A stretch of 48,669 nucleotides of DNA from Eubacteriales bacterium (GTDB taxonomy: Bacteria > Bacillota > Clostridia > Oscillospirales > CAG-272). The stretch lies in contig JAZNEQ010000023.1 in NCBI GenBank assembly GCA_045588715.1, forward strand, positions 1-48,669, written 5' to 3'. Positions 2,555 to 37,778 of this stretch are shown in pieces (positions within the stretch are counted from its first letter, which is position 1; each line of letters starts with the position of its first letter). The position numbers and the translations under genes are program-made. The notes below the pieces were generated by a model, which searched no databases, was not told the DNA's origin, and saw nothing but the letters and a program-made list of their open reading frames with translations.

Positions 2555-3064
2555 TCAGAGCACCAACGACGGTGCCGTATAAACTCTTGCGGCAAGCTCC
2601 TGGTTGAGCAGATACAGGCTTCGGGGATCCGTTCCGAACAGCTCCATTTTGGTGATCATATCGTTTGCGTTGGTCTCCTCCTCGCCCTGCTCCTTGACAA
2701 ACCAATCCAAAAACTGCATGGTGCGGAAATCGCGAGCTTCATACGCTGCGGCATAAATGTCATTGATCAGCGAGGTAACATACTTCTCGTGCTCAAGCCC
2801 CGCCTTTAAAACGTCCATGTGCGCCTCAAACGTTTTGTCGGGCTTTGCGATCGCCTCAAGCGTTACAACTTGGCTTTCGTTTTGGAGGTATTGATAAAAG
2901 AGCATTGCGTGATCTCTTTCCTCCTGTGCCTGGATCATATACCAGTTTGCAAATCCGTCAAGACCGCGCGCCTTGAAATAGTTTGAAAAATCGAGATAAA
3001 GATATGCGGAGTAAAATTCCTTATTGATCTGTGCGTTCAGCAGTTCATGTACCTTTGTATGCAT
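2555..3064 (-). CDS. ftnA: Non-heme bacterial ferritin
   Basis: 'LNAQINKEFYSAYLY', 'QAQEERDHA', 'FLDWFVKEQGEEE' ferroxidase motifs. Confidence 0.92.
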   Translation of the reverse strand: MHTKVHELLNAQINKEFYSAYLYLDFSNYFKARGLDGFANWYMIQAQEERDHAMLFYQYLQNESQVVTLEAIAKPDKTFEAHMDVLKAGLEHEKYVTSLINDIYAAAYEARDFRTMQFLDWFVKEQGEEETNANDMITKMELFGTDPRSLYLLNQELAARVYTAPSLVL

Positions 3065-3105
3065 TTATGTATTCTCCTTTGCCGTTGTTTTTTGTTTACG
3101 AGCTT

Positions 3106-23600: not shown

Positions 23601-24260
23601 TTAAAGCAATTCAAATTTGTTTTTTTCGCACGCAATGATCCCCTCGCGCCGAAGCTTTCCGATCTCCGCAGAAAGTCCGCTGCGATCCACCTCAAGGTAA
23701 TCCGCCAAAGCCTGACGGTCAAAAGGGATCTCAAATGCGTTATCCCCCACGTCTCTTGCGCGGGATGCAAGATATGACAAAAGCTTTTCCCTGGTCGTAC
23801 GCTTGGATGTGATCTCCGTTTTTTCATGAAACATTACGTTTTTTTGCGCCAGATCCTTCATCAGGTTGTAGATCAGCATTTGGTGATGCACACAGTACTT
23901 CTCACAGGTATGCAAAATGTGTGAGCAATCGATCAACATAACCTCGCTCATCTCATTTGCCACCACACTCACAGGAAGCGCCGACAGCCCCGCACAGGCA
24001 AACGACTCCGAAAAGATCTCTGATTCTGAAATATGAAACAAAACGCTCCGATTGCCGTAATAATCGTTCTGAACGATTTGGGCAGACCCGGAAAGCTGGA
24101 TCCCAATATACCTGGCGGGGGACCCTTGTGCCATGATCGTGTATTTCTTATCAAAGCACTCTATCCTCGCTCCAAGGCAGGAAAGCATTTTCAAAAGATC
24201 GTTTTCCTCGATTCCTACAAACAAGGGGCATTTTTTTAATTTTTCCAGATATTTTTTCAC
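23601..24260 (-). CDS. Crp/Fnr family regulator (HcpR-like)
   Basis: cNMP-binding domain; 'RQALADYLEVDRSGLSAEIGKL' HTH. Confidence 0.9.
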   Translation of the reverse strand: MKKYLEKLKKCPLFVGIEENDLLKMLSCLGARIECFDKKYTIMAQGSPARYIGIQLSGSAQIVQNDYYGNRSVLFHISESEIFSESFACAGLSALPVSVVANEMSEVMLIDCSHILHTCEKYCVHHQMLIYNLMKDLAQKNVMFHEKTEITSKRTTREKLLSYLASRARDVGDNAFEIPFDRQALADYLEVDRSGLSAEIGKLRREGIIACEKNKFELL

Positions 24261-24274
24261 TTTTTTCTCCGTTT

Positions 24275-24290
24275 TGTTGAAAATTCAACA
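24275..24290. promoter_or_regulatory. Palindrome TGTTG-N6-CAACA, candidate operator of the adjacent Crp/Fnr regulator
   Basis: TGTTGAA-AA-TTCAACA in the divergent intergenic region. Confidence 0.5.
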
Positions 24291-24389
24291 TACTTTTCGG
24301 GAATATTATACTATAATAATCTCGGAAAATCAAGAGAAAAGGAAAAATACTTGTATTTCGAAAACATTTTCCGTAAGAGGTAAATTCCT

Positions 24390-25424
24390 ATGAAAATTGC
24401 ATTTTTTGATACAAAGCCGTACGACAAGCCTGCCTTTGATAAATACGGCGTCGAAAACGGCATTCAATTTAAATATTTTGAAACCAAGCTTTCCGAGGAT
24501 ACCGCAGAGCTTGCCCGCGGATACGACGGCGTATGCGTTTTTGTAAACGACACGGTCAACAAGCCCGTCATCGATAAACTGACCAACTTTGGGATCCGCC
24601 TGCTTGCGCTTCGATGCGCGGGCTTTAACAACGTGGATATGAAATACGCCCACGGAAAGCTCCACGTCTTTCGTGTGCCCGCGTATTCGCCGTATGCCGT
24701 TGCCGAGCACGCGATCGCACTCCTGCTCACCTCCATTCGCCGTATCCACAAGGCGTATATCCGCACACGTGACTTTAATTTCAGCCTCGCGGGAATGACC
24801 GGCTTTGATCTGCACGGAAAAACGGTAGGGGTCGTCGGCACCGGACGTATAGGCCGTGCGTTTATCGACATTTGCCTGGGCTTTGGCATGAAGGTGTTGG
24901 CGTACGACAAATTTCCCGCACAGGATCTTGCTGTCAAAGAGCGCGTCTCCTACGTCTCCTTGGACGAGCTTTTTGCGGGCAGCGATATCATTTCTCTGCA
25001 CTGCCCCCTTGCCGAGGACACCTATCACCTTATCCAGCGAGAGACACTTGCAAAATGCCGCCGCGGTGTGGTGATCTTAAACACCTCACGCGGTGCGCTC
25101 ATTGATGCCGAGGATCTTCTGGAAGCGATCAAAGCACGCCACGTAGGCGCTGCGTGTCTTGACGTATACGAGGAGGAATCCGAATTCTTCTTCGAGGACT
25201 TCTCCGGTCACATTATCGACGATGACGTATTGGCAAGACTGATCTCCATGCCCAACGTGATCGTCACCTCTCATCAAGCCTTTCTGACCGAGGAGGCATT
25301 GCAAAGCATTGCCGAAACAACGGTAAACAATCTTGTTACCTTTGTAAAAAACGGACAGTGTGAAAACGAGCTTTGCTATCGCGGTGGAACGACCGAGGAT
25401 TGCAAAAGCGGAAAATGCTTTTGA
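24390..25424 (+). CDS. ldhA: D-lactate / D-2-hydroxyacid dehydrogenase
   Basis: 'RCAGFNNVD', 'YSPYAVAEHA', GTGRIG, 'NTSRG', 'LDVYEEE', 'TSHQAFLT'. Confidence 0.9.
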   Translation: MKIAFFDTKPYDKPAFDKYGVENGIQFKYFETKLSEDTAELARGYDGVCVFVNDTVNKPVIDKLTNFGIRLLALRCAGFNNVDMKYAHGKLHVFRVPAYSPYAVAEHAIALLLTSIRRIHKAYIRTRDFNFSLAGMTGFDLHGKTVGVVGTGRIGRAFIDICLGFGMKVLAYDKFPAQDLAVKERVSYVSLDELFAGSDIISLHCPLAEDTYHLIQRETLAKCRRGVVILNTSRGALIDAEDLLEAIKARHVGAACLDVYEEESEFFFEDFSGHIIDDDVLARLISMPNVIVTSHQAFLTEEALQSIAETTVNNLVTFVKNGQCENELCYRGGTTEDCKSGKCF

Positions 25425-26106: not shown

Positions 26107-27900
26107 ATGCAGATCACCAAGGATATCAGATACATTGGAGTTAACGATCACAAGGTAGACCTTTTCGAGGGGCAATACCCGGTTCCAAACGGAATGGCGT
26201 ATAATTCCTATGTCATTCTGGACGAAAAAATCGCCGTTATCGATACGGTAGACGCGGGCTTTACCCACGAATGGCTCGACAATCTTCAAACAACGCTTTC
26301 CGGGAAAAGTCCCGATTACCTCATCGTTCAACACATGGAGCCCGATCATTCAGCAAATATTCAAAGTTTCCATAAGGCATATCCCAATGCAACCATTGTG
26401 GCATCCGCAAAAGCGTTTCCCATGATGAAAAACTTTTTCGGAACCGATTTTGAAGAGGCGCAGCTTGTCGTTGGCGAGGGGGACACCTTGAGTCTCGGAA
26501 AACATACGCTTACCTTCGTCACCGCTCCCATGGTACATTGGCCCGAGGTCATCGTCACCTACGATTCGTATGATAAGGTGCTTTTCTCCGCCGACGGATT
26601 TGGAAAATTCGGTGCCTTGGACATCGACGAGCCTTGGGCAGACGAGGCAAGGCGTTATTATATCGGTATTGTCGGAAAATACGGCGTTCAAGTGCAAAAA
26701 CTGCTGCAAAAAGCAGCAGGGCTTGACATTTCCGCGATCTGCCCCTTGCACGGTCCTGTCCTCAAGGAGGATCTTGGCTATTATATCGGGCTTTACAACA
26801 CCTGGTCAAGCTACGAGGTTGAGGACGAGGGCATCGTCATCGCCTATACCTCAGTCTACGGCAATACCAAACGCGCGGTCAACGTTCTTGCCGAAAAGCT
26901 GCGTGCCGCAGGTGCTCCCACGGTAAAGGTGTACGATCTTGCAAGGTGTGATATTACGGAAGCTGTCGCCGATGCCTTCCGTTATTCCAAGCTTGTTCTG
27001 GCAACGACCACCTATAACGGCGATATCTTCCCCTTTATGCGCACCTTTATCGATCATCTGACCGAGCGCAATTTTTCAAACCGCACCGTAGCCCTTATCG
27101 AAAACGGAAGCTGGGCACCTCTTGCAGCCAAGGTGATGCGCGGAATGCTTGAAAAATCCAAAAACCTCACTTTCAGCCCCACAGCGGTACGGATCTTGTC
27201 TGCCATGAACGACGAAAGCCGTGCGGCACTTGACGAAATGGTAAAGGAGCTTTGCCGCGAATACCGCGAGCAAAGCGACACCACCGCAAACAAAAACGAT
27301 CTTTCTGCACTTTTCAATATTGGATACGGCTTATACGTGGTCACCTCCAACGACGGAAAGCGCGACAACGGACTCATCGTCAACACCGTCACACAGGTGA
27401 CAAGCATTCCCAACCGCATTGCCGTTACGATCAACAAGCAAAACTACTCTCACCATATCATCAAGCAAACGGGCAAAATGAACATCAACTGCCTGACGAC
27501 CGATGCCCCCTTTGCCGTATTTGAAAAATTTGGATTTACCAGCGGAAGAAACACCGATAAATTTGCGGGGTGCGAACCGCTTCGCTCTGACAACGGACTC
27601 ATCTTTTTACCAAGGTATATCAACTCTTTCCTCTCCCTTACGGTAGAAAGCTACGTCGATCTTGATACCCACGGTATGTTCGTGTGCACGGTCAGCGAGG
27701 CGCGCGTCCTGTCTGACAAGGAATCCATGACCTATGCGTATTACCACGAAAACGTCAAACCAAAGCCCAAGACAGAGGGAAAGAGCGGATACGTCTGCAA
27801 GATCTGCGGATACGTGTATGAGGGCGAGACGCTCCCCGAGGACTTTATCTGCCCACTTTGTAAACACGGCGCTTCCGACTTTGAGCCCTTGGAGAAATAA
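26107..27900 (+). CDS. fprA: Multidomain flavodiiron protein (MBL + flavodoxin + flavin reductase + short rubredoxin)
   Basis: HMEPDH, HWP, SAD and HG iron ligands; 'SVYGNT' flavodoxin; 'YGLYVVTS' flavin reductase; CKIC..CPLC. Confidence 0.9.
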   Translation: MQITKDIRYIGVNDHKVDLFEGQYPVPNGMAYNSYVILDEKIAVIDTVDAGFTHEWLDNLQTTLSGKSPDYLIVQHMEPDHSANIQSFHKAYPNATIVASAKAFPMMKNFFGTDFEEAQLVVGEGDTLSLGKHTLTFVTAPMVHWPEVIVTYDSYDKVLFSADGFGKFGALDIDEPWADEARRYYIGIVGKYGVQVQKLLQKAAGLDISAICPLHGPVLKEDLGYYIGLYNTWSSYEVEDEGIVIAYTSVYGNTKRAVNVLAEKLRAAGAPTVKVYDLARCDITEAVADAFRYSKLVLATTTYNGDIFPFMRTFIDHLTERNFSNRTVALIENGSWAPLAAKVMRGMLEKSKNLTFSPTAVRILSAMNDESRAALDEMVKELCREYREQSDTTANKNDLSALFNIGYGLYVVTSNDGKRDNGLIVNTVTQVTSIPNRIAVTINKQNYSHHIIKQTGKMNINCLTTDAPFAVFEKFGFTSGRNTDKFAGCEPLRSDNGLIFLPRYINSFLSLTVESYVDLDTHGMFVCTVSEARVLSDKESMTYAYYHENVKPKPKTEGKSGYVCKICGYVYEGETLPEDFICPLCKHGASDFEPLEK

Positions 27901-27905
27901 CACGT

Positions 27906-28658
27906 ATGGAACTTGTATTATTGACTGCCGTCGGAGTGGGAGGCGCTACCGTCATCGGTGCCATCATCGGCTTTTGCTTTAAGCGCATCTCCCACACCTT
28001 CTCCGATATCGTTCTTTCCTTTGCCGCAGGTGTCATGCTGGCAGCAGCCGTACTGGGGTTGATCCTTCCTTCCCTGGAGTACGGCGGTGATCTCGGGCTT
28101 CTTTACGCCGTTCTCGGAATTTTTTGCGGTGCGATCTGTCTCAACCTTATCGATAAACTTGTACCGCACCTACATAAGCTGGCGGGTGTGGATAGCGAAA
28201 CCCACACCAACAAAAATATCAGCCGCGTCCTGCTTTTCGTCAGTGCCATTGCGATCCACAATCTCCCCGAGGGAATTGCGGCAGGCGTTGGCTTTGGCTC
28301 GGGCGACACCTCGCAGGCACTCATTATTGCGGGCGGTATCGCTCTGCAAAACATCCCTGAGGGAATGGTCATCATTGGTCCTATGCTGTCAGCAGGGATC
28401 AAGCCCGGCAGGACCTTCTTTCTTGCCATGATGACAGGACTTGTCGAAGTGGTGGGAACCTTGATCGGTTACTTCGCGGTATCCGTTTCCACGGCGATAC
28501 TTCCCTTTGCCCTCGCCTTCGCGGGAGGAACCATGCTATACGTGATCAGCGATGAAATGATTCCCGAAACACACGCGCACGGACATGAGCGCGGTGCTAC
28601 TTACGCACTTCTGGTCGGCTTTTGCCTGATGCTTGCCACCGACGTATTGCTTGGATAA
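27906..28658 (+). CDS. ZIP family metal transporter (ZupT/GufA-like)
   Basis: 'FAAGVML', 'HNLPEG', 'QNIPEG', 'EMIPE'. Confidence 0.92.
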   Translation: MELVLLTAVGVGGATVIGAIIGFCFKRISHTFSDIVLSFAAGVMLAAAVLGLILPSLEYGGDLGLLYAVLGIFCGAICLNLIDKLVPHLHKLAGVDSETHTNKNISRVLLFVSAIAIHNLPEGIAAGVGFGSGDTSQALIIAGGIALQNIPEGMVIIGPMLSAGIKPGRTFFLAMMTGLVEVVGTLIGYFAVSVSTAILPFALAFAGGTMLYVISDEMIPETHAHGHERGATYALLVGFCLMLATDVLLG

Positions 28659-28666
28659 AAAATAAA

Positions 28667-30522
28667 GGGGCTAGCTCAAATACAGTAAAATGTTTTTGGG
28701 CTAGTTTCTTTTTTTATTTTTTTGTCATCGGAAACAAAAACAAAAGAAAAAAGCCTCTAAACGAGGCAAAAATGAGCACGACGAAAAGAGGATCGATTAA
28801 ATCCTCAATTTTGAGAGTTATACAATTCCGTAGAGAATTGGTTTAAGAGGCGTTCAGAGCGAACAAATCCAAGCCAATTCTTCCTTTTTTCGTGCGGTTG
28901 CATAGTTTTTCAATATTTAAAGCGAAAGCCAGAAGGAAAAATTGTGTTTCTATGTTCTTCTTTCCTCTCGTCAAAAAACGTCTGAATCCATAGTCTTCTT
29001 TAAGTACACCAAACACACCTTCTACCTGAATAGATCTGTTCATACGCAGAAGTGTTCCTTCTTCACTCGTCAGAGCTTCAAGTGTTTTTGGTCTGTGTTC
29101 AAGGATTACTTGGTTTACCTTAACCGTTCTGTAACCGGTTTTAGATTTATGGCATTTATCTCTGTGTGGACATCTTCCGCATTTGTCATTGCTGTAATAT
29201 TTTGTAGAGATAGTATATCCGTTCTCGGTAGTCTTTTTACTTTCTCTCCTAAATTTTAACTTTCTTCCGTTAGGACAAGTATACTCATCTCTTTTAGCAT
29301 TGTAATCCATATTTTCTACAGTATACGGATTTGCCTTGTAGCTACGTTTCTTGCTTATCTCGTAATTCTGCGGTTTAATGAAACAGTTTTGTCCGTTCTC
29401 TTCAAGATAAAGATAATTCTCGCTGCTCTCGTATCCCGCATCTGCTATTATGTTCTCGAATTTTCTGTTAGTGTGTTTTCTTATTCTGTTAAGAAAAGGT
29501 ATTAGAGTTCCTACGTCACTTCTGTTAGAGAAGGAACCTACACCTACAATATATTCGCTTTCTACACCTATTTGTATATTGTATCCCGGTTTAAGCTGAC
29601 CGTTACGCATATAATCTTCCTTCATATGCATAAAGGTTGCGTCGGTATCTGTTTTAGAAAAGCTTCTTCTATTACCGAATTTGCCGAGATGTGAGCAATA
29701 TTCGCCCTTCTTGTCTATGTATTCTCGGAGCTTTTCAATATCTCTTTGAAGCTGTATTTTATGCTTTCCTTTTCCAACCGCAAATACAAGATTGAGCCAC
29801 TGAGCCTGTAAGCAAAGTTGCTCATAGCATTCTTCAAGGGATATGTTTTCGCTAAAACCGTACCTTTCCGAAAGTACAGAAAGCAGAACAGATATTTTCT
29901 TTTCAAGCTTTGCAAGATTCTTTTCAACCGCACTTTTCCACACAAACGTATACTTGTTTGCATATGCTTCTATCTTTGTACCGTCTACGAAAAGATTCTT
30001 GTATTTTACCTCTCCCATTTCGTAAAGTTTATTTACAAACTGGTAGAAAAGTCCTTCTATGGCTTCGGATAATTTTTCGCCTTGAAATCTCTTTATTGTT
30101 GCTACACTTGGAGTAGGTTCGCCTTCAAGTAACCACATAAATCTTATATCTGTACGACAAGCCTTTTCGATTGCATATGATGAGAATTTCCGTTCCATAT
30201 ATCCAAACACCAACAGTTCAAACATAGTTATTGGATTTACTTTTCTCCAGCTGCGAAGATACGTATTGAACAGTTCTGTATAATCCAAACTTTCGCAAAT
30301 TTCTGCTACTTTGAATACAAAATCTCCCTCGGGAATACAAATTCCTAAATCTAATGGTAAAACTACTTGATTTTTCTCTATCATTGTTGTATAATTATCT
30401 CGCTTTCTTGTGGGTTATTTTGTGGTGATTTAATTATACAACAAAGCAAGCGGATGCTCAATACCTTTCGGTAAAGAACATCCGCTTTTTCTTTTTTTAG
30501 GTTAGCTTAATGAGCTAGCCCC
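28667..30522 (-). mobile_element. IS1182-family insertion sequence
   Basis: Terminal IRs GGGGCTAGCTCA (28667-28678) / TGAGCTAGCCCC (30511-30522), extendable by AAA/TTT; markedly AT-rich; one transposase; no clear TSD. Confidence 0.9.
28843..30384 (-). CDS. IS1182-family DDE transposase
   Basis: 'FVDGTKIEAYANKYTFVW', 'SKTDTDATFMHMKED', 'GYNIQ', 'ADAGYES', 'RSIQVEGVFG'. Confidence 0.95.
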   Translation of the reverse strand: MIEKNQVVLPLDLGICIPEGDFVFKVAEICESLDYTELFNTYLRSWRKVNPITMFELLVFGYMERKFSSYAIEKACRTDIRFMWLLEGEPTPSVATIKRFQGEKLSEAIEGLFYQFVNKLYEMGEVKYKNLFVDGTKIEAYANKYTFVWKSAVEKNLAKLEKKISVLLSVLSERYGFSENISLEECYEQLCLQAQWLNLVFAVGKGKHKIQLQRDIEKLREYIDKKGEYCSHLGKFGNRRSFSKTDTDATFMHMKEDYMRNGQLKPGYNIQIGVESEYIVGVGSFSNRSDVGTLIPFLNRIRKHTNRKFENIIADAGYESSENYLYLEENGQNCFIKPQNYEISKKRSYKANPYTVENMDYNAKRDEYTCPNGRKLKFRRESKKTTENGYTISTKYYSNDKCGRCPHRDKCHKSKTGYRTVKVNQVILEHRPKTLEALTSEEGTLLRMNRSIQVEGVFGVLKEDYGFRRFLTRGKKNIETQFFLLAFALNIEKLCNRTKKGRIGLDLFALNAS

Positions 30523-30549
30523 TTTTGATATATTACACGTCAAATTACA

Positions 30550-31659
30550 TTATATCCACATGAAAGTGCGGAATTTTTCGTTTTTAAACCAACGGCGCTC
30601 CGTCTTAAGCTTGCCCTCCTCGGTAAGTCGCCAAAGCACGTCGTAAACCAGCCTTGCATGCTGGAAAAGAGGATGATCACCGGGGAAAATATCGCGCATT
30701 TCTCTTGCTATCGCAAGTTCAAGGTCATCAAAATACAGAGGCTCGTCAGCTTTTCCCTGAAGCATGCCGACTATTCTGTTATATCCGTCCTCAAACACCT
30801 CGGGAGTAATCTCGCTTATCTCCTCGCCCTCCATCTTATCCTCTGTAGCAATTCTGATATTGTCCTTCGTGATTTCACACGGGTACATTATAGGCAGCTG
30901 CTGATATTCACCGGGCAATCCGTCCGGGAACGCGAATCTCGTCGTTGCGATATACATGCCGTCCTCGGTTTTAAGGGTTGCCGCAGGTCTTGTTGTGCGA
31001 AGCACGTAGATTCTGTCCGGAGTTGCAACGTTAATCATTTCAAGTACTCCGTCTTTGTATAAATAGGAATCAACCTTGGACATGGCAGCCGTCATGCTCA
31101 TTCCTTGATTATAGTAATAATGAACGGCATTCGTACGAATCTCTGCGCCGCTCGTATTAGCGCCGTTCTTGAGCACGGGCATATTGCGCTTTGTAGGAAC
31201 CCGCATCTCAGCCTCGTTTGCATTAACACTCACGTTCTGATAATCGGCAAGTCCGTTTTTCTCAAAAACCTCGCCGCGGAACTTGTATCCCGCATCGCAA
31301 AGCATTTCGGCAAGCGAACGACTTCTTGCCGCAACGTCGCCTATACTTATTCCCGTTCCGTTGGTTACGCCCGCCATGGTTTCATCGGGAGTGATAAACG
31401 GATGAGCCATAACGTATGAATCATTCTTTCCACCCGGTCTTGTATGAGCAATCCCGATTGTGCCGGGCAGATAGAGCGCATCGGTATGCTTTATAAGCGC
31501 GTCAACGTCACCTACTATCTTTCTGTAATAAAGTCTGCCTTCGTGAATAGTTGCAATTCCCGTGCACATTCCTCCGTCATAATCCTGCTGACGGCGAAGC
31601 ATCTCAAGAAGTATCGGCGCTGCGGCTCTTTTACCTACGTATCCTGCTATATTACACAT
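30550..31659 (-). CDS. Standalone class II glutamine amidotransferase-like (Ntn hydrolase) protein with unknown C-terminal domain, paralogue 2
   Basis: MCNIAGY N-terminal Cys, 'GIAHTR', 'HPF', 'TNG'; start at 31659 after GGAG. Confidence 0.72.
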   Translation of the reverse strand: MCNIAGYVGKRAAAPILLEMLRRQQDYDGGMCTGIATIHEGRLYYRKIVGDVDALIKHTDALYLPGTIGIAHTRPGGKNDSYVMAHPFITPDETMAGVTNGTGISIGDVAARSRSLAEMLCDAGYKFRGEVFEKNGLADYQNVSVNANEAEMRVPTKRNMPVLKNGANTSGAEIRTNAVHYYYNQGMSMTAAMSKVDSYLYKDGVLEMINVATPDRIYVLRTTRPAATLKTEDGMYIATTRFAFPDGLPGEYQQLPIMYPCEITKDNIRIATEDKMEGEEISEITPEVFEDGYNRIVGMLQGKADEPLYFDDLELAIAREMRDIFPGDHPLFQHARLVYDVLWRLTEEGKLKTERRWFKNEKFRTFMWI

Positions 31660-31676
31660 GTTTTTTCTCCATGCTT

Positions 31677-32720
31677 TTAAATCCACATAAACGTGCGGAA
31701 CTTTTCGTTTTTAAACCAACGGCGCTCTGTTTTTAGTTTTCCTTCTTCCTTCAGGCGCCAGAGAACGTCATAAACCAGCCTTGCGTGCTGAATAAGTCTG
31801 TGGTCACCGGGAAAAAGGTCGCGCATCTCGCGTCCCACGGCAAGCTCAAGGTCGTCAAAATGGAGGGGCTCGTTGCCCTTGCCGCGAAGCATGTCGCAGA
31901 TTCTCTTATATCCCTCTTCAAGACTGTATTCGGTAAGCTCGCTGACCTCCTCGCATCCAGTCATTTTTTCGTCGGTGACTATAATTTCGTCATTAGTAAT
32001 TTCGCACGAGTGCATTAACGGGAGCTGAGTGACCTCGCCTTTAATTCCGTCAGGAAATGCAAATCTCGTGGACGCGACGTATATTCCGTCATCGGTCTTT
32101 AACGTTGTGGCGGGGCGTGTTGTGCGAAGTATGTAAAATCTGTCCGGTGTTGCAACGTTGACTGCGCCGAATACGCTGTCGGTATAGCATTCGACAGACA
32201 TTTTTGCTATTGCCGCAGACATACTCATTCCGTGATTATAGTAGTAGTGAACAAGATTTGTGCGCGTTTCAACGCAGCTTATATGGCTTCCGTTTTTTAG
32301 GACTGGAAATTTAGTTTCCATCGAAGCAAAAGCTTCGCCGCGGAATTTATAGCCCTCGGATTCAAGGAAATCCGTCGCTCTCTGAATGTCTACGTGATAC
32401 TCAGGAAACGGTGCCGTTCCGTTTGTAAAGCCCGCAATGGTTTCATCCTGCGTCACAAAGGTGTGAGCAAATGCATAGGTCTGATTGCTTCCACCAGGTC
32501 TTGTATGCGCTATACCTACAGTTCCCGGAAGATAAAGCGCATCGGTGTGCTTAATAAGCGCATCTACGTCACCTACTATCTTTCGGCTGTAAAGCCTTCC
32601 CTCATAAATCGTTGTAATTCCCGTGCATACACCGCCGTCAAAATCCTGCTGACGTCTTAGCATCTCAAGAAGTATCGGCGCTGCAGCTCTTTTACCTGCA
32701 TATCCTGCAATATTACACAT
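31677..32720 (-). CDS. Standalone class II glutamine amidotransferase-like (Ntn hydrolase) protein, paralogue 1
   Basis: MCNIAGY, 'GIAHTR', 'TNG'; near-identical termini to 30550..31659. Confidence 0.72.
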   Translation of the reverse strand: MCNIAGYAGKRAAAPILLEMLRRQQDFDGGVCTGITTIYEGRLYSRKIVGDVDALIKHTDALYLPGTVGIAHTRPGGSNQTYAFAHTFVTQDETIAGFTNGTAPFPEYHVDIQRATDFLESEGYKFRGEAFASMETKFPVLKNGSHISCVETRTNLVHYYYNHGMSMSAAIAKMSVECYTDSVFGAVNVATPDRFYILRTTRPATTLKTDDGIYVASTRFAFPDGIKGEVTQLPLMHSCEITNDEIIVTDEKMTGCEEVSELTEYSLEEGYKRICDMLRGKGNEPLHFDDLELAVGREMRDLFPGDHRLIQHARLVYDVLWRLKEEGKLKTERRWFKNEKFRTFMWI

Positions 32721-32838
32721 TTCTACTCTCCTTATTCAAAAATTATAGGCAGGAGTTTTTCCTCCCTATATAATACTATAACGTTAGGTTTTTGTAAAGA
32801 GATTTAATCAAAATTGTTTTAAATTTTCATGCTTTATA

Positions 32839-34379
32839 TTAAAACAAAAGCTTTCCTTCAATTTTTGTAAGCTCTTTTCCCTGAAATATCTCAAATGCGT
32901 TTTTTTCATAGTCAAGAGGTGTCAATTCTCTTACTCTCTCGATATTATTAGTATTTTTGGGACTCACCTCATAAAGCCATACCGTGCCGGGATATACGAA
33001 GTTAGTCATAAGAGTGTCGAGAAGATCATTCCAATCTATCTTTCCCTCTCCGGGAAGAAGATGCCTTTCATTTACGAAATCGTAGTCGGAAATATGTAAG
33101 GCTACTATCTTGCTTCCGACAGCTTTAGTGAAGTCTTTATAGCTTTCGGAAAGAAGGTGGTTTGTGTCGTAACAAACGCGAAGAAGCGGGTGTGCTGATA
33201 TGAGTTCAAGAATTTCCGCAGAATCTCTGCCAAGGCAGGTACGTGGCAAATTTTCAACTGCAATAATCGCTCCACACTCAGCCGCTATTTCAGCAAGTCT
33301 GGCAAGGCTCTTCTTAGCGCATTCCATTCTCTCTGCTCTCTCGGAATCAGCAATCGGCTCTCCGCTTGCGTGAACTACAAATTTCGCTGATTTATACATA
33401 TTCTCTGCCATTGCGCGGCGTATAATATCCGCCATCATCTCAACCGATGCGTCTGCAAGCTCGGGCTTAGAAATATCTATTTTGTCAAATGGGCTGAATG
33501 GGAGATGTATCGAATCTACGGTAACTCCGTAATCGTGTGAAAGTCTTGCGAGCTTTTTGAAATCCATCTGTGCCATGTGGCATTCCGGCAGCGAAAGCTC
33601 CGTATAATAGATAAATCCCTTTCTGTATGAATCGAAAAGCTCATCGTTTATGTCCTCAAGATTGTTACCGCACGTGGACATTCCTCGGTTGTAACCCGTT
33701 TTCTTGTTAGAGGTCTGGAAAACCGTATACTGATATCCGTTGGGGTTATCCTGAACGATATTGTTAACGTATATATCCCTTACGTCAGCGCGCAGCTCCA
33801 AGGCAAACTTTGCATTTCTTGAATGAACCCCGTTAATGTATATATTGTTAATATCTCCTGCTGTATATCCGTCACCGTAACCCGTGTAAAGACAAAGCAC
33901 AGACCATTTTGCGCCCTGCTCGCTTTCCTCGATATTTTCTATATTTACGTTATAGACCTTATCGCCGTTTGCCGCAAGACATATCATAACGTGATGCAAA
34001 CCGCCGACTTTTACGTTTTTAACCTCTATATCGTGAATGTCATGTGAATAACCGTCAACGCATCCTGCAGCCATCGTCATCGGATATACTGACTTTGCAT
34101 TCGGATACGTATATCTGATGCCTTTTGATAATGCCGTACATGCAACGCCGTCATCCGTAACGTAGCCCGTAAGATTTTCAACCTTACAGTGATGGCAGCC
34201 CGATCTGAAATCAATTCCGTCGCCGTTCTTGCAGAAAGAATAGATTGCAATATCGTGAATATATACGTTAGAGGACCACTCAAACGTTATTGCCCAACAC
34301 ATAGTTTTGGAAAGCTCAATACCCGATATTTCAAAATTATCAGCCTTGGCAAAGGCAATCATCATGGTGCGCCAGCCCC
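32839..34379 (-). pseudogene. 5'-truncated GH28/pectin-lyase-fold beta-helix fused to a sugar-phosphate epimerase TIM barrel
   Basis: 'NGDGIDF', 'TDDGVA' GH28-like motifs start mid-domain; C-half has 'VENLPR', 'CYDTNH', 'HISDY', 'ERHLLPGEG'; frame open, possible restart at ATG 34365. Confidence 0.6.
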
Positions 34380-34382
34380 TTT

Positions 34383-37300
34383 TTATTTTGTTTTGCGCTT
34401 TTTCTTTCGCCGCAAAATCGTAACCGTTGCTATTCCTCCACCGATGAGGGCAAGCCCTCCCAAAACGCAAGGAAGCACCAGCTCCACCAAAAGGTTATTG
34501 TTGTTTCCGGTATCGTAATTCACATCCCGTATGGCGCGGATAAACTGTGCCTCAAAGACAAGCTCGTGCTCATCCCCTGTCAAAATAACAGGTACGTTTT
34601 TCCCCCAGGAAACGAAATTATAAACGTACCTGTCATCCCCTTCCTTGTGGGGATTTGGCGGAATTTCAAGCTTTTCACCATACCCGTAGGTCTTCTCGAG
34701 AAGTACCTTTCCTTCGGATTTAAAAACAACGTGATAAACAATGGGTTCCACCACAAAGGAAACGTCCACAGCACTCTCAGGCATTACAAAGCTATATCCA
34801 TCCAGCACGATCGTATTCCCGTCAGCATCCTTCACCTCGATCCCCGTGATCTCATATCCCGTATCACAGGTCACGTTTAAGGATACGGTACTTCCGATCA
34901 AGGCATCGGCATCAAGCGCCATTGTGTTGCAAAGTGGATTGTGCTGTACTCTGAGCGGATACGCGTACGCGAGGCGCACAGTCACCCCCGAAAAAGCAGG
35001 AATACTGCCTTGCTCGATCCGCGTTTCCTCCCCGGAGACGTCGCACAGGAAAAATGCAGTTCTTTTTCCGTCTTCAAATTCCCGGTGGGGTAAATGCAGA
35101 GCGGTAACCCCTTCTTCGAGCTGAATTTCCCGAAGGGCATTGTCATAAAAGCGTAGCTCGTAAAAATCCTCTCCATCACTTTCAAAGCTTTGAAGAACGA
35201 TCCGCGTACATCCCGCATCCCTTAAGGACGTAAGGTGTTTAAGGGAAACGGAAAGCTTGCATCCGTTCTCCCACAAAAGAGAAAGTCCCTTTTCAAGCTC
35301 TGCTGCATATCCCAAGGTATCCGCCACCCCTACAGAGGAGAATTCACCCGCGAGAACAGTCAGGGTGTGTTGGTCGGTCGTAATGGGCAAAGGCTCCGAT
35401 ACCCCTCCGATCGCATAAGGCTTTCTTTCATAAAGAGCGGTATAGGTAGCTTCCCCCTTGACCGCCTCAATTTCGGGAGAAAAACCAAGAAACGTGCATC
35501 TCTCGTTTGGTGAAACAATTGCCGTTTCTCCGCTAAAGGAAGGAATAGAGCCGTATTCCCACATCTCGGTGGTAACGTTCTCCCCTACCTCCCAATGGAT
35601 CGCAAACTTTTTTGTGATCCTTTGAAATTCACCAACGTAAGTAACGTCTCCCGTCACTCTTCCGATCTCTTGATTCCAACCCGAAAATTGATACGCATAT
35701 CCATAGGTATCGTATGACCTACAGGGTACGTCCGTCCCGGGCTTTGGAATGCTTCCATAAGACCAGCGCGCTGTGTGATCCGTCACAACGCCATCCCCGT
35801 CCTTGATCCTCCAGGTAACGGTGTAGATCTTTTGTGTCATTTCATAATGCGGATAAACGTCGATATCCGCCACGACAAGGGAAAGGTCCACCGTCTCGCC
35901 GTCAGCACCAACCCACCCAAGAGTACGGTAGGTGTAGGCAGGGGACAAAGCATGCTCGGGCACTTCTTTATAAACTCTTCCACCGTAATTGACACTGACG
36001 GTATCCAATACGGTTCCGTCGATGTCGTGGAAGATCACTGTTTTTTGATTGGTAATGGATACGTTACGCAAAAGCGTTTTCGAAAACGAAAGCTCCATAT
36101 CCTCAATAGGACCGTTGTATTTTTTTAGCGTTCCGTTTCGAACCTCCTCGGCAAGGCGCATGGACAAGGGCTCGGCATCGGGAAGCATGGGTGGACTTGC
36201 AGGATAGCTCTCCACCCTTTCGGGAATTCCCCCTTCATCGGGATCGGCAACGGCGGCAGGCGCCGTACCGGGATGCTCTACCGCCTCGGGAGCGATCGGC
36301 TTTCGATCGGGACGCGCTACGCTTGGCGCCTTGACAGGCGCGGGGCAAGCGGCTTCCTCCGCATACGCCGGCATGGGAGACACGCGGGGATCCCAGTCTC
36401 CGTCGGCAAGAATTTGAATAGGCTCCACGATCTCACCAAGTCGAAATCCCACGATCTTCCACTTTGAATCATCCCTTTGACCGCTCTCATCAAGACAGGT
36501 GGAAATAACGTATAATTGGCCTATCAGCTGCAAATAGTGCTCCCGCTTCCCCTCCATGTCAAGCACCTGCTCTACACTCGTGTTTTCAAGCAATGCACTC
36601 AGCGACATATACAGATTGGTAAAATGGAGCTTCAATTCCTCATAATGCTCTGAAAAATAAGCATATCGTTTGGCTGTTCCCTGATATCCGGACGTGGCAG
36701 CCGTCCAATACAAAGGATCGTAGCCGGTAATCAGCTCACGAAGCGCTACGGTCGAATCCCCGGCAAGATTCACGTCCTCCTCCGAACAGAGGAGCACGTC
36801 AACGAGCTCATCCTTTCGGTTTATCACCTCGGTGACCGTAGAGCCCATGATCGCACCGCGCAGACTCCATCGCCTGCTGTCCGATACGTAAATATAATCC
36901 ATCAAGGCAAGCTTTGCTTCGACGGTCGCCATCGAAGCAAGATAATTTTGATAAGCGGTGTATTTACTGTACTCCGCCTCATATTCCCTTACTTTTTCGT
37001 AATACTTCTGCCACTGCTCGTACGCGGCGTTTTTGACGATGTATTCACTCCGCGCCTCGCGGTATGCGTCATATGCCGCCAACTGCTCGTTGTAGGAGGC
37101 AAGCGCCTCACAGTAGGCGGTATAGGCGGCCTTGTTTGTTAAATACGTTTGCCAAGTGTTATATGCGTCGACCTTGCTTTGGTATGCCTCAAGCTCTTCC
37201 TCATAGCCTGCCATCGCATCGTAAGCAGCCTTTCCCACAAGATAAGCTTCGTTTCTCAACGTTGTCACGGTCTCCTTCGGTACCGTAACGCTCCAGCTGT

Positions 37301-37778
37301 AGTCCACCTCCATTTCGAAATCCTCGGAGCGAAACAAATTTCCAAAATGACCGGTATAATGATCCCCCTCCGGGGTAAGCTCAAGAACCTTTCCGTCAAC
37401 TCTTGCCGTTGTGGGAAGCCACGTTACGGTGGCCCCGTTGGTGGCTGTATATTGATAGGGACGCACCGTAATGGAAAGTACCCCTTCCTCTCCGTCATAG
37501 TCGGTCGAGACTGCGGAGGCGGGGATCGCACTGTTATAGCCAAACGTGATCCCCATTTGGTCCAAATACTCTGCCGTAGCATTGGTGGGATCCTTTTCAA
37601 AAAGATAGCGGTACAGATCCGCCCCCCTGTATTCCGTATTGTTTTCGCGGCCATAGAGTCCAAAATCCAAGGAGTTCTCCTCCTCTGCCGCCGCGGGCAG
37701 TGCCGCCCCCAACGGAATCGCGGCACATAGCAAGAGCGCCAGAAGCATGGCCACGCAATATATCATTCTACGTTTCAT
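34383..37778 (-). CDS. Large membrane-anchored surface protein (signal peptide, Tyr/Ala helix, Pro-rich linker, B-repeat-like domains, C-terminal TM + basic tail)
   Basis: N-terminal signal peptide; repeated 'Y(T/H)V.(W/F)...YG..P...F.GW' units; TM followed by RRKKKRKTK; promoter TTGACT-17-TATCAT at 37839-37811. Confidence 0.8.
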   Translation of the reverse strand: MKRRMIYCVAMLLALLLCAAIPLGAALPAAAEEENSLDFGLYGRENNTEYRGADLYRYLFEKDPTNATAEYLDQMGITFGYNSAIPASAVSTDYDGEEGVLSITVRPYQYTATNGATVTWLPTTARVDGKVLELTPEGDHYTGHFGNLFRSEDFEMEVDYSWSVTVPKETVTTLRNEAYLVGKAAYDAMAGYEEELEAYQSKVDAYNTWQTYLTNKAAYTAYCEALASYNEQLAAYDAYREARSEYIVKNAAYEQWQKYYEKVREYEAEYSKYTAYQNYLASMATVEAKLALMDYIYVSDSRRWSLRGAIMGSTVTEVINRKDELVDVLLCSEEDVNLAGDSTVALRELITGYDPLYWTAATSGYQGTAKRYAYFSEHYEELKLHFTNLYMSLSALLENTSVEQVLDMEGKREHYLQLIGQLYVISTCLDESGQRDDSKWKIVGFRLGEIVEPIQILADGDWDPRVSPMPAYAEEAACPAPVKAPSVARPDRKPIAPEAVEHPGTAPAAVADPDEGGIPERVESYPASPPMLPDAEPLSMRLAEEVRNGTLKKYNGPIEDMELSFSKTLLRNVSITNQKTVIFHDIDGTVLDTVSVNYGGRVYKEVPEHALSPAYTYRTLGWVGADGETVDLSLVVADIDVYPHYEMTQKIYTVTWRIKDGDGVVTDHTARWSYGSIPKPGTDVPCRSYDTYGYAYQFSGWNQEIGRVTGDVTYVGEFQRITKKFAIHWEVGENVTTEMWEYGSIPSFSGETAIVSPNERCTFLGFSPEIEAVKGEATYTALYERKPYAIGGVSEPLPITTDQHTLTVLAGEFSSVGVADTLGYAAELEKGLSLLWENGCKLSVSLKHLTSLRDAGCTRIVLQSFESDGEDFYELRFYDNALREIQLEEGVTALHLPHREFEDGKRTAFFLCDVSGEETRIEQGSIPAFSGVTVRLAYAYPLRVQHNPLCNTMALDADALIGSTVSLNVTCDTGYEITGIEVKDADGNTIVLDGYSFVMPESAVDVSFVVEPIVYHVVFKSEGKVLLEKTYGYGEKLEIPPNPHKEGDDRYVYNFVSWGKNVPVILTGDEHELVFEAQFIRAIRDVNYDTGNNNNLLVELVLPCVLGGLALIGGGIATVTILRRKKKRKTK

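Follow-up and report, generated by a model that had tools for sequence, protein, structure and literature searches.

ISEcp1, an insertion sequence (IS) of the IS1380 family, captures neighbouring DNA downstream of its transposase gene (tnp) through surrogate right ends, and the resulting units are flanked by 5-bp duplications. In composite transposons, passenger genes also move together with an IS, of which two copies are present. Within the IS1182 family, IS1272 and the gene sh-fabI of staphylococci move as a unit, TnSha1, with the layout IRL′-cargo-IRL-tnp-IRR, where IRL and IRR are the left and right terminal inverted repeats (IRs) of the IS and the alternative IRL′ is 69% identical to the IS ends (Furi et al., 2016; PMC4923244). 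According to that work, the insertions of TnSha1 always lie in terminator hairpins, part of which is deleted, and lack a target duplication. IS1272 itself has been termed “IR-replacing” (“cut-paste-and-cut”), with targets of 21–85 bp that lie downstream of genes, no target site duplications (TSDs) and, in its authors’ account of these targets, no sequence similarity among them (Wan et al., 2017; PMC5678879). The full-text literature that we searched suggests that TnSha1 is the only described case of gene mobilisation by an IS1182-family element through an alternative IR. Here we describe a second, independent example, and the first with nested alternative ends: a 5713-bp unit of one IS1182-family IS and adjacent foreign DNA (the cargo). 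It lies in contig JAZNEQ010000023.1 (C23 of genome G000), which was analysed over its entire length of 48,669 nt (hereafter the window) and belongs to a metagenome-assembled genome (MAG) of an uncultured animal-gut Eubacteriales bacterium (2.18 Mb, 176 contigs, 92% complete).

We consider window positions 28667–34379 to be, with a probability of about 0.8, the product of one event made by the IS transposase, which would have used an IR-like 12-mer at 34368–34379 as a surrogate end. The original prediction, made from the letters of the window, had proposed such a capture of adjacent DNA, and it is supported by the empty allele, the truncation point and the second unit described below; all its coordinates and counts were correct. 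It had also presented capture as a behaviour not known for IS1182 elements, which the description of TnSha1 already contradicts for IS1272 (PMC4923244, in its account of TnSha1). The mechanism is not new for the family, and what this locus adds is modest, namely two nested units from one IS-cargo junction.

In both TnSha1, as published, and the unit described here, a single IS1182-family IS and adjacent chromosomal DNA follow the layout given above, with the cargo on the IRL side, upstream of tnp. An alternative IR, inverted relative to the distal IS end, marks the boundary and serves as second end (69% identity in TnSha1, 10/12 or 83% here), and in both cases the insertion took the place of sequence in a terminator hairpin and left no duplication. 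The two differ in their hosts (staphylococci and uncultured gut Eubacteriales) and passengers (a drug-target gene there, three metabolic-type genes here). The surrogate end of the present unit lies inside a coding sequence, which it truncates, and its IS-cargo junction has two surrogate ends. The transposase appears to be distant, its nearest annotated matches being ISClbu1-like at 46%. Replacement of an inverted-repeat target without TSDs is likewise shared with IS1272 as published, and the target of 45 bp falls within the size range given for it; the replacing element here is IS plus cargo, and the arms of the target resemble the IS ends. As with ISEcp1, one IS copy mobilises adjacent DNA through IR-like sequences at variable distances. 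An ISEcp1-like unit was nevertheless rejected: no IS1380 model is among the NCBIfam matches of the transposase at E ≤ 0.01, no direct repeat surrounds the unit, and the cargo lies upstream of tnp, whereas ISEcp1 captures downstream DNA. A composite transposon was rejected as well, there being one IS copy, with a 12-nt look-alike within a gene in the role of second end.

The surrogate end is marked by a truncated gene. The 12-mer TGCGCCAGCCCC has the orientation of the IS end at 30511, is directly followed by TTTTT and is native coding sequence, of which GGGGCTGGCGCA is the minus-strand reading, with the codons G-W-R-T. The gene encodes a GH28-like domain fused to a xylose-isomerase-like TIM barrel (a PF00295 fragment and PF01261 in Pfam). 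Standalone GH28-like relatives carry DFWGWRT at residues 133–143, and a protein search returned 17 full-length fused relatives of 625–651 aa (P0002–P0018). The best of these (P0002, 647 aa, 93% identical) aligns with the open reading frame (ORF) of the window from residue 136, at GWRT, to its end. In a metagenome contig (L064), a full-length gene of 70% identity has the same 21 nt around the motif, and the similarity of the contig to the window stops at 34379. Because the full-length homologues carry ~135 more N-terminal residues, the window ORF has lost 135 codons: it is without residues 1–135 of a ~647-aa protein, the break falls on the outer base of the IR-like 12-mer, and its first ATG lies 12 nt behind AAAGGGG. 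The original prediction had placed the 10/12 match exactly at the cut of this ORF, which agrees with the end of homology at 34379; a natural start of the homologues near 34365, which it had raised as an alternative, is not what they show.

IR-like 12-mers with at most two mismatches occur six times in the window, against 2.23 ± 1.41 in shuffled sequences (2 of 100 shuffles reach six), and because two of the six are the IS’s own ends, the count alone is unremarkable. Unlike the count, the position of 34368–34379 is not due to chance: a match within 1 nt of the end of homology and in the right orientation has a probability of ~1e-4 (from ~2.3e-5 per position and strand). The GH28::TIM-barrel fusion was examined as a second breakpoint and rejected, as the fusion is natural and has 17 full-length relatives. 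Proteins that join a GH28-like domain of pectate-lyase fold to a xylose-isomerase-like TIM barrel form a natural family, most members of which are labelled PF01261 only.

The empty allele was found in gut metagenomes. Four public animal-gut runs were mapped onto window positions 27000–36000; holes in cover (X4, 33020–34223; X5, 34525–36000) were not taken as evidence. Contigs of 849 nt in run X1 and 637 nt in run X3, which come from two different studies, join position 28672 to 34373 with 32 other letters between. They span 28266/28285–28672 and 34373–34782/34589, and their flanks differ from the window at three to six positions per side (~400 nt). Together with GGGGCT on the left and CAGCCCC on the right, the 32 letters form a 45-bp hairpin with a 14-bp perfect stem and a 17-nt loop (complementarity established by hand), bordered by an A-tract on the 5′ side and a T-tract on the 3′ side. 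By its structure and setting, this hairpin is a predicted bidirectional terminator between the convergent ZIP and 1131-aa host genes. In the window, 5700–5713 bp replace 32–45 bp of the hairpin; the IS and the cargo are absent together from the empty allele. The cut points are ambiguous, and the loss of target lies between 32 and 45 bp, since 6 nt at one end of the unit and 7 nt at the other also occur in the hairpin arms. There is no target duplication, the unit being flanked by AAATAAA on the left and TTTTTAT on the right without a direct repeat. The hairpin arms match the IS ends at 9 of 12 positions (by hand).

The original prediction had named IS-free relatives that keep 30523–34379 at this locus as the contrary case, and the contigs of X1 and X3 lack both parts. 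It had also expected that removal of 28667–34379 would leave two nearly abutting genes, in place of which the real empty allele has the 45-bp hairpin.

A second unit uses another surrogate end. In a MAG of another species (G478:C84; L068), 3399 of 3399 bases are identical to window positions 30433–33831; the contig leaves the window directly after TGAATGAACCCC, continues with TTTTTT and, 7 nt on, reaches the stop of a different convergent host gene. The cargo of this shorter unit stops 548 bp earlier than that of the window. Because G478 and the window end at different 12-mers, one IS-cargo junction gave two different CCCC-ended termini, and both (34379 and 33831) abut a T-tract behind a host gene. 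An empty site for the G478 unit was sought in 40 relatives of G478, where its flank had no match. Among the metagenome runs, a 1337-nt cargo contig of X1 ends exactly at 34379, and a 7833-nt contig of X5 covers 31501–34384, passes 34379 by five T and continues with 4949 nt unlike the window.

The IS was assigned to the IS1182 family on its transposase, which matches NCBIfam model NF033551 (IS1182 family transposase) at 368.4 bits (cut-off 270) over residues 4–495 of 513, and on the terminal IRs that bound a single transposase gene. Its closest annotated plasmid matches are ISClbu1-like (46% aa identity). The left IS end lies 8 nt past the ZIP stop codon (28656–28658), as originally predicted, and the IS ends are flanked by AAA and TTTT; a terminator scan showed that IRL pairs with 30500–30507 to form a small hairpin. 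No second copy of the IS is present in the window or the G000 contigs, in which the sole other match is a 45-bp piece on C149. A comparison with the ends of other copies, as suggested with the original prediction, yielded 99–100% identical copies in G327 with the same termini and other, T-rich flanks, so the IS moves on its own too.

A 537-bp non-coding derivative of a related IS, resembling a miniature inverted-repeat transposable element, ends in GGGGCTGTCTCA and was found in G022:C40 (L031, 1422–1958) and in G342:C18. Its ends are of the same kind as those of the unit, it sits where G349, G347 and G006 have a terminator hairpin, its right boundary falls exactly at the hairpin foot, and the hairpin that it replaced in G022 and G342 is not IR-like. 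Several further short IS derivatives were seen in G478. The coordinates of the features are collected in Table 1.

Table 1. Features of the captured unit and its surroundings (window positions; aa counts refer to the encoded proteins).
Feature	Position	Strand	Remarks
ZIP-family metal transporter gene of the host, left flank	27906..28658	+	PF02535
A-rich tract, bordering the unit on its left; in the empty allele it precedes the hairpin	28659..28666	.	
IS1182-family insertion sequence, 1856 bp	28667..30522	-	12-bp perfect terminal IRs
IS end downstream of tnp (IRR in the element’s orientation)	28667..28678	+	GGGGCTAGCTCA
Transposase gene, 513 aa	28843..30384	-	NF033551; Pfam DDE_Tnp_1_6, DUF772
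IS end upstream of tnp (IRL)	30511..30522	+	TGAGCTAGCCCC, exact reverse complement of GGGGCTAGCTCA
Captured foreign DNA (cargo), 3857 bp	30523..34379	-	all genes on the minus strand; foreign codon usage
Cargo gene, 378 aa	30550..31686	-	class-II glutamine-amidotransferase-like N-terminus
Cargo gene, 347 aa	31677..32720	-	tandem paralogue of the 378-aa gene
5′-truncated GH28-like::xylose-isomerase-like TIM-barrel gene, 508 aa from first ATG	32839..34365	-	
Second IR-like native 12-mer	33820..33831	+	TGAATGAACCCC, 8/12 vs IS end; end of shorter unit, G478:C84
Surrogate end (IRL′) of the 5713-bp unit	34368..34379	+	TGCGCCAGCCCC, 10/12 vs IS end
T-tract, bordering the unit on its right; in the empty allele it follows the hairpin	34380..34384	.	
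Host gene, 1131 aa, right flank, convergent with ZIP	34383..37778	-	no family match

The following course, that of a transposition unit of the TnSha1 type, would best explain the block at 28667–34379. In a donor genome, an IS1182-family IS would have landed ~25 nt past the stop codon of the 378-aa gene. As partner for the IS end at 28667, the transposase would then have taken not the true end at 30522 but a look-alike of it 3.86 kb away, the GWRT codons of the GH28-like::TIM-barrel gene (GGGGCTGGCGCA on the minus strand). A cut after the terminal CCCC would have severed the first 135 codons of that gene and carried three genes along with the IS, presumably all in one event. The target of the unit would have been the terminator hairpin that the convergent ZIP and 1131-aa genes of this species shared, with removal of the hairpin and without target duplication, in the “inverted-repeat/stem-loop replacing” mode of IS1272. 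Since the insertion removed the terminator of the 1131-aa gene, transcription of this gene may run into the cargo genes on the same strand, and a host promoter may drive them.

Several points weigh against this course. The filled junctions (28666/28667 and 34379/34380) are bridged by no listed contig piece in the four runs, and the filled allele is represented by the window contig alone. The donor search over 30523–34379 that had been proposed with the original prediction succeeded in part: full-length homologues were found, and an intact donor gene at near 100% identity was not (best 93% aa, P0002). The 8/12 match at the end of the G478 unit is of a kind common by chance (~3e-3 per position, by arithmetic). 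Because the G478 contig starts 90 nt inside the IS, the full IS and the left flank of this unit are unseen. In X5, the flank need not mark a new site, as it could represent a diverged allele of this locus. For TnSha1, circular intermediates were not detected in the work of Furi et al. on this element (PMC4923244). Lastly, the unit ends share GGGGCT (6 nt) and CAGCCCC (7 nt) with the hairpin arms, so that a microhomology join is possible.

Such a join is the core of a transposase-free origin, in which a foreign fragment was integrated through microhomology-mediated illegitimate recombination with the hairpin arms, and the 9/12 match of the arms with the IS ends also speaks for it. This origin leaves three things unexplained: the left end falls exactly on the last base of an intact IS, the similarity of the right end to the IS end extends past the hairpin-shared part (TG.GC, on the inner side), and the cargo of the second unit also stops after a CCCC, a different one, next to a T-tract. 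Hairpin replacement in this group needs no microhomology, as the 537-bp element shows with its target hairpin, which is not IR-like; for the same reason, the 9/12 match in the window may be a coincidence. We regard a transposase-free origin as very unlikely. An origin in two steps, in which the IS first replaced the hairpin and the cargo arrived later by homologous recombination in the IS and an illegitimate join of …AGCCCC to TTTT, can draw on the solitary movement of the IS in G327 and on the IS-cargo DNA at 99.9–100% identity in several species, which shows that incoming DNA with an IS handle exists. The joints in the four runs, however, include no IS-only allele (30522 joined to 34380). 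The right join would also have hit the outer base of the IR-like 12-mer and the hairpin foot exactly and by accident, and for the G478 unit the same kind of accident would have to be assumed once more; two steps seem very unlikely to us.

An assembly chimera, with the host flanks wrongly joined to the IS and cargo of another organism, would suit a MAG of 176 contigs, the unbridged junctions, and the presence in X1 and X3 of the empty allele at about flank depth and of the cargo as well. The sequence shared at the junctions is 6–12 nt, and stretches of this size are too short for joins in the k-mer graphs of de Bruijn assemblers. Both junctions, moreover, fall on the two feet of one hairpin, unlike a random mis-join, and we consider a chimera highly improbable. 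Capture by the transposase through the surrogate end is therefore the reading that we retain.

As this locus is a second, independent case and lies outside the staphylococci, it suggests that capture is a property of the IS1182 family and not a staphylococcal oddity. A wider proposal is speculative, and we hold it to be doubtful: capture through surrogate ends might be routine and repeatable in hairpin-replacing IS1182-family elements, in contrast to the one-off of TnSha1, extending outward to loosely IR-like CCCC ends, and recognition of a surrogate end and of a target hairpin might be the same act. If so, nested units (3.3 and 3.9 kb of cargo) would shuttle metabolic genes among species of gut Clostridia at 99.9–100% identity, and any IR-like pair of arms would be treated as ends, which would give a mechanistic basis for “cut-paste-and-cut”. 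Units of this kind combine a single IS with a truncated gene at the opposite end and lack a duplication, so that standard IS and transposon annotation will miss them; as identical DNA is present in more than one species, they will also blur MAG binning.

The base composition of the unit sets it apart from its surroundings, as originally predicted for 30523–34379. The GC content is 0.364 in the IS and 0.450 in the cargo, against 0.50–0.52 in the flanks and 0.502 in the genome. ATA makes up 0.40–0.44 of Ile codons in cargo genes vs 0–0.10 in flank genes, and AGA makes up 0.35–0.58 of Arg codons vs 0–0.17. The 378-aa protein matches the N-terminal region of GlmS in NCBIfam below the cut-off (E 7.7e-16) and has no Pfam match. 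Its gene and the 347-aa paralogue share 71–80% nucleotide identity over parts, and both proteins have GlmS-like glutamine-amidotransferase N-termini, without the sugar-isomerase half and with no Pfam match at 1e-3.

Parts of the cargo occur at 99.9–100% identity in three other MAG species (G005, G326 and G478). A scan of 77 other genomes of the genus found them only in G005 and G326 (99.7–99.9% identity), and in 400 other sampled genomes of the order cargo DNA was not found, except for one 243-bp match at 73%. The exact right-end pattern (34379) had no record in genome_contigs, a scan from which the window’s own genome is possibly absent; in metagenome_contigs the pattern returned only the 70% homologue, and the IS-cargo junction pattern had no record in viral_contigs.

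A third arrangement of the cargo was seen in G005 (C197, 465–3332; L004/L067), where 18 nt of IS end and the cargo up to ~33371 (window 30508–33371) are 99.9% identical to the window. On one side of this piece lie the first ~38 codons of an integrase-like gene, and on the other the first ~25 of an XRE-type helix-turn-helix gene; the two remnants are convergent, with ~150-bp direct repeats outside them. The end of G326:C82 (L057) has the same right breakpoint as the G005 piece. Neither junction in G005 is CCCC-ended, and the left break (TAATGAGC…) lies in the loop of the small hairpin at the IS end (30500–30520).

At the host locus, the stop codon of the 1131-aa gene (34383–34385) lies 3 nt past the IR-like site; its protein has no Pfam or NCBIfam match, and at the DNA level the gene shows little conservation across the genus. 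The ZIP protein shares ~89% aa identity with its orthologues in G005:C107 and G022:C106, which have the same flavoprotein gene as a neighbour. Species representatives of the genus have only ~70–75% DNA identity to the window and a different gene order. They were considered as a source of the empty site and rejected: because a different gene follows ZIP in G005 and G022 (its G000 homologue is on C132), there is no comparable site in these genomes. The sequence behind ZIP in G005:C107, which aligns to the window up to 28680, was likewise rejected as a trace of the IS, being G005’s own terminator. In both G005 and G022, a ~170-aa gene separates the flavoprotein gene from ZIP, which is followed by a ~335-aa gene; the G000 homologues of these two genes are located at window positions 2558–3076, 25 kb away, and at C132 2659–3654, respectively. 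Judged by gene order, the species of the window is rearranged around ZIP independently of the IS. A low-GC stretch (0.37) is also present at window positions 24000–24600, to the left of the profiled region.

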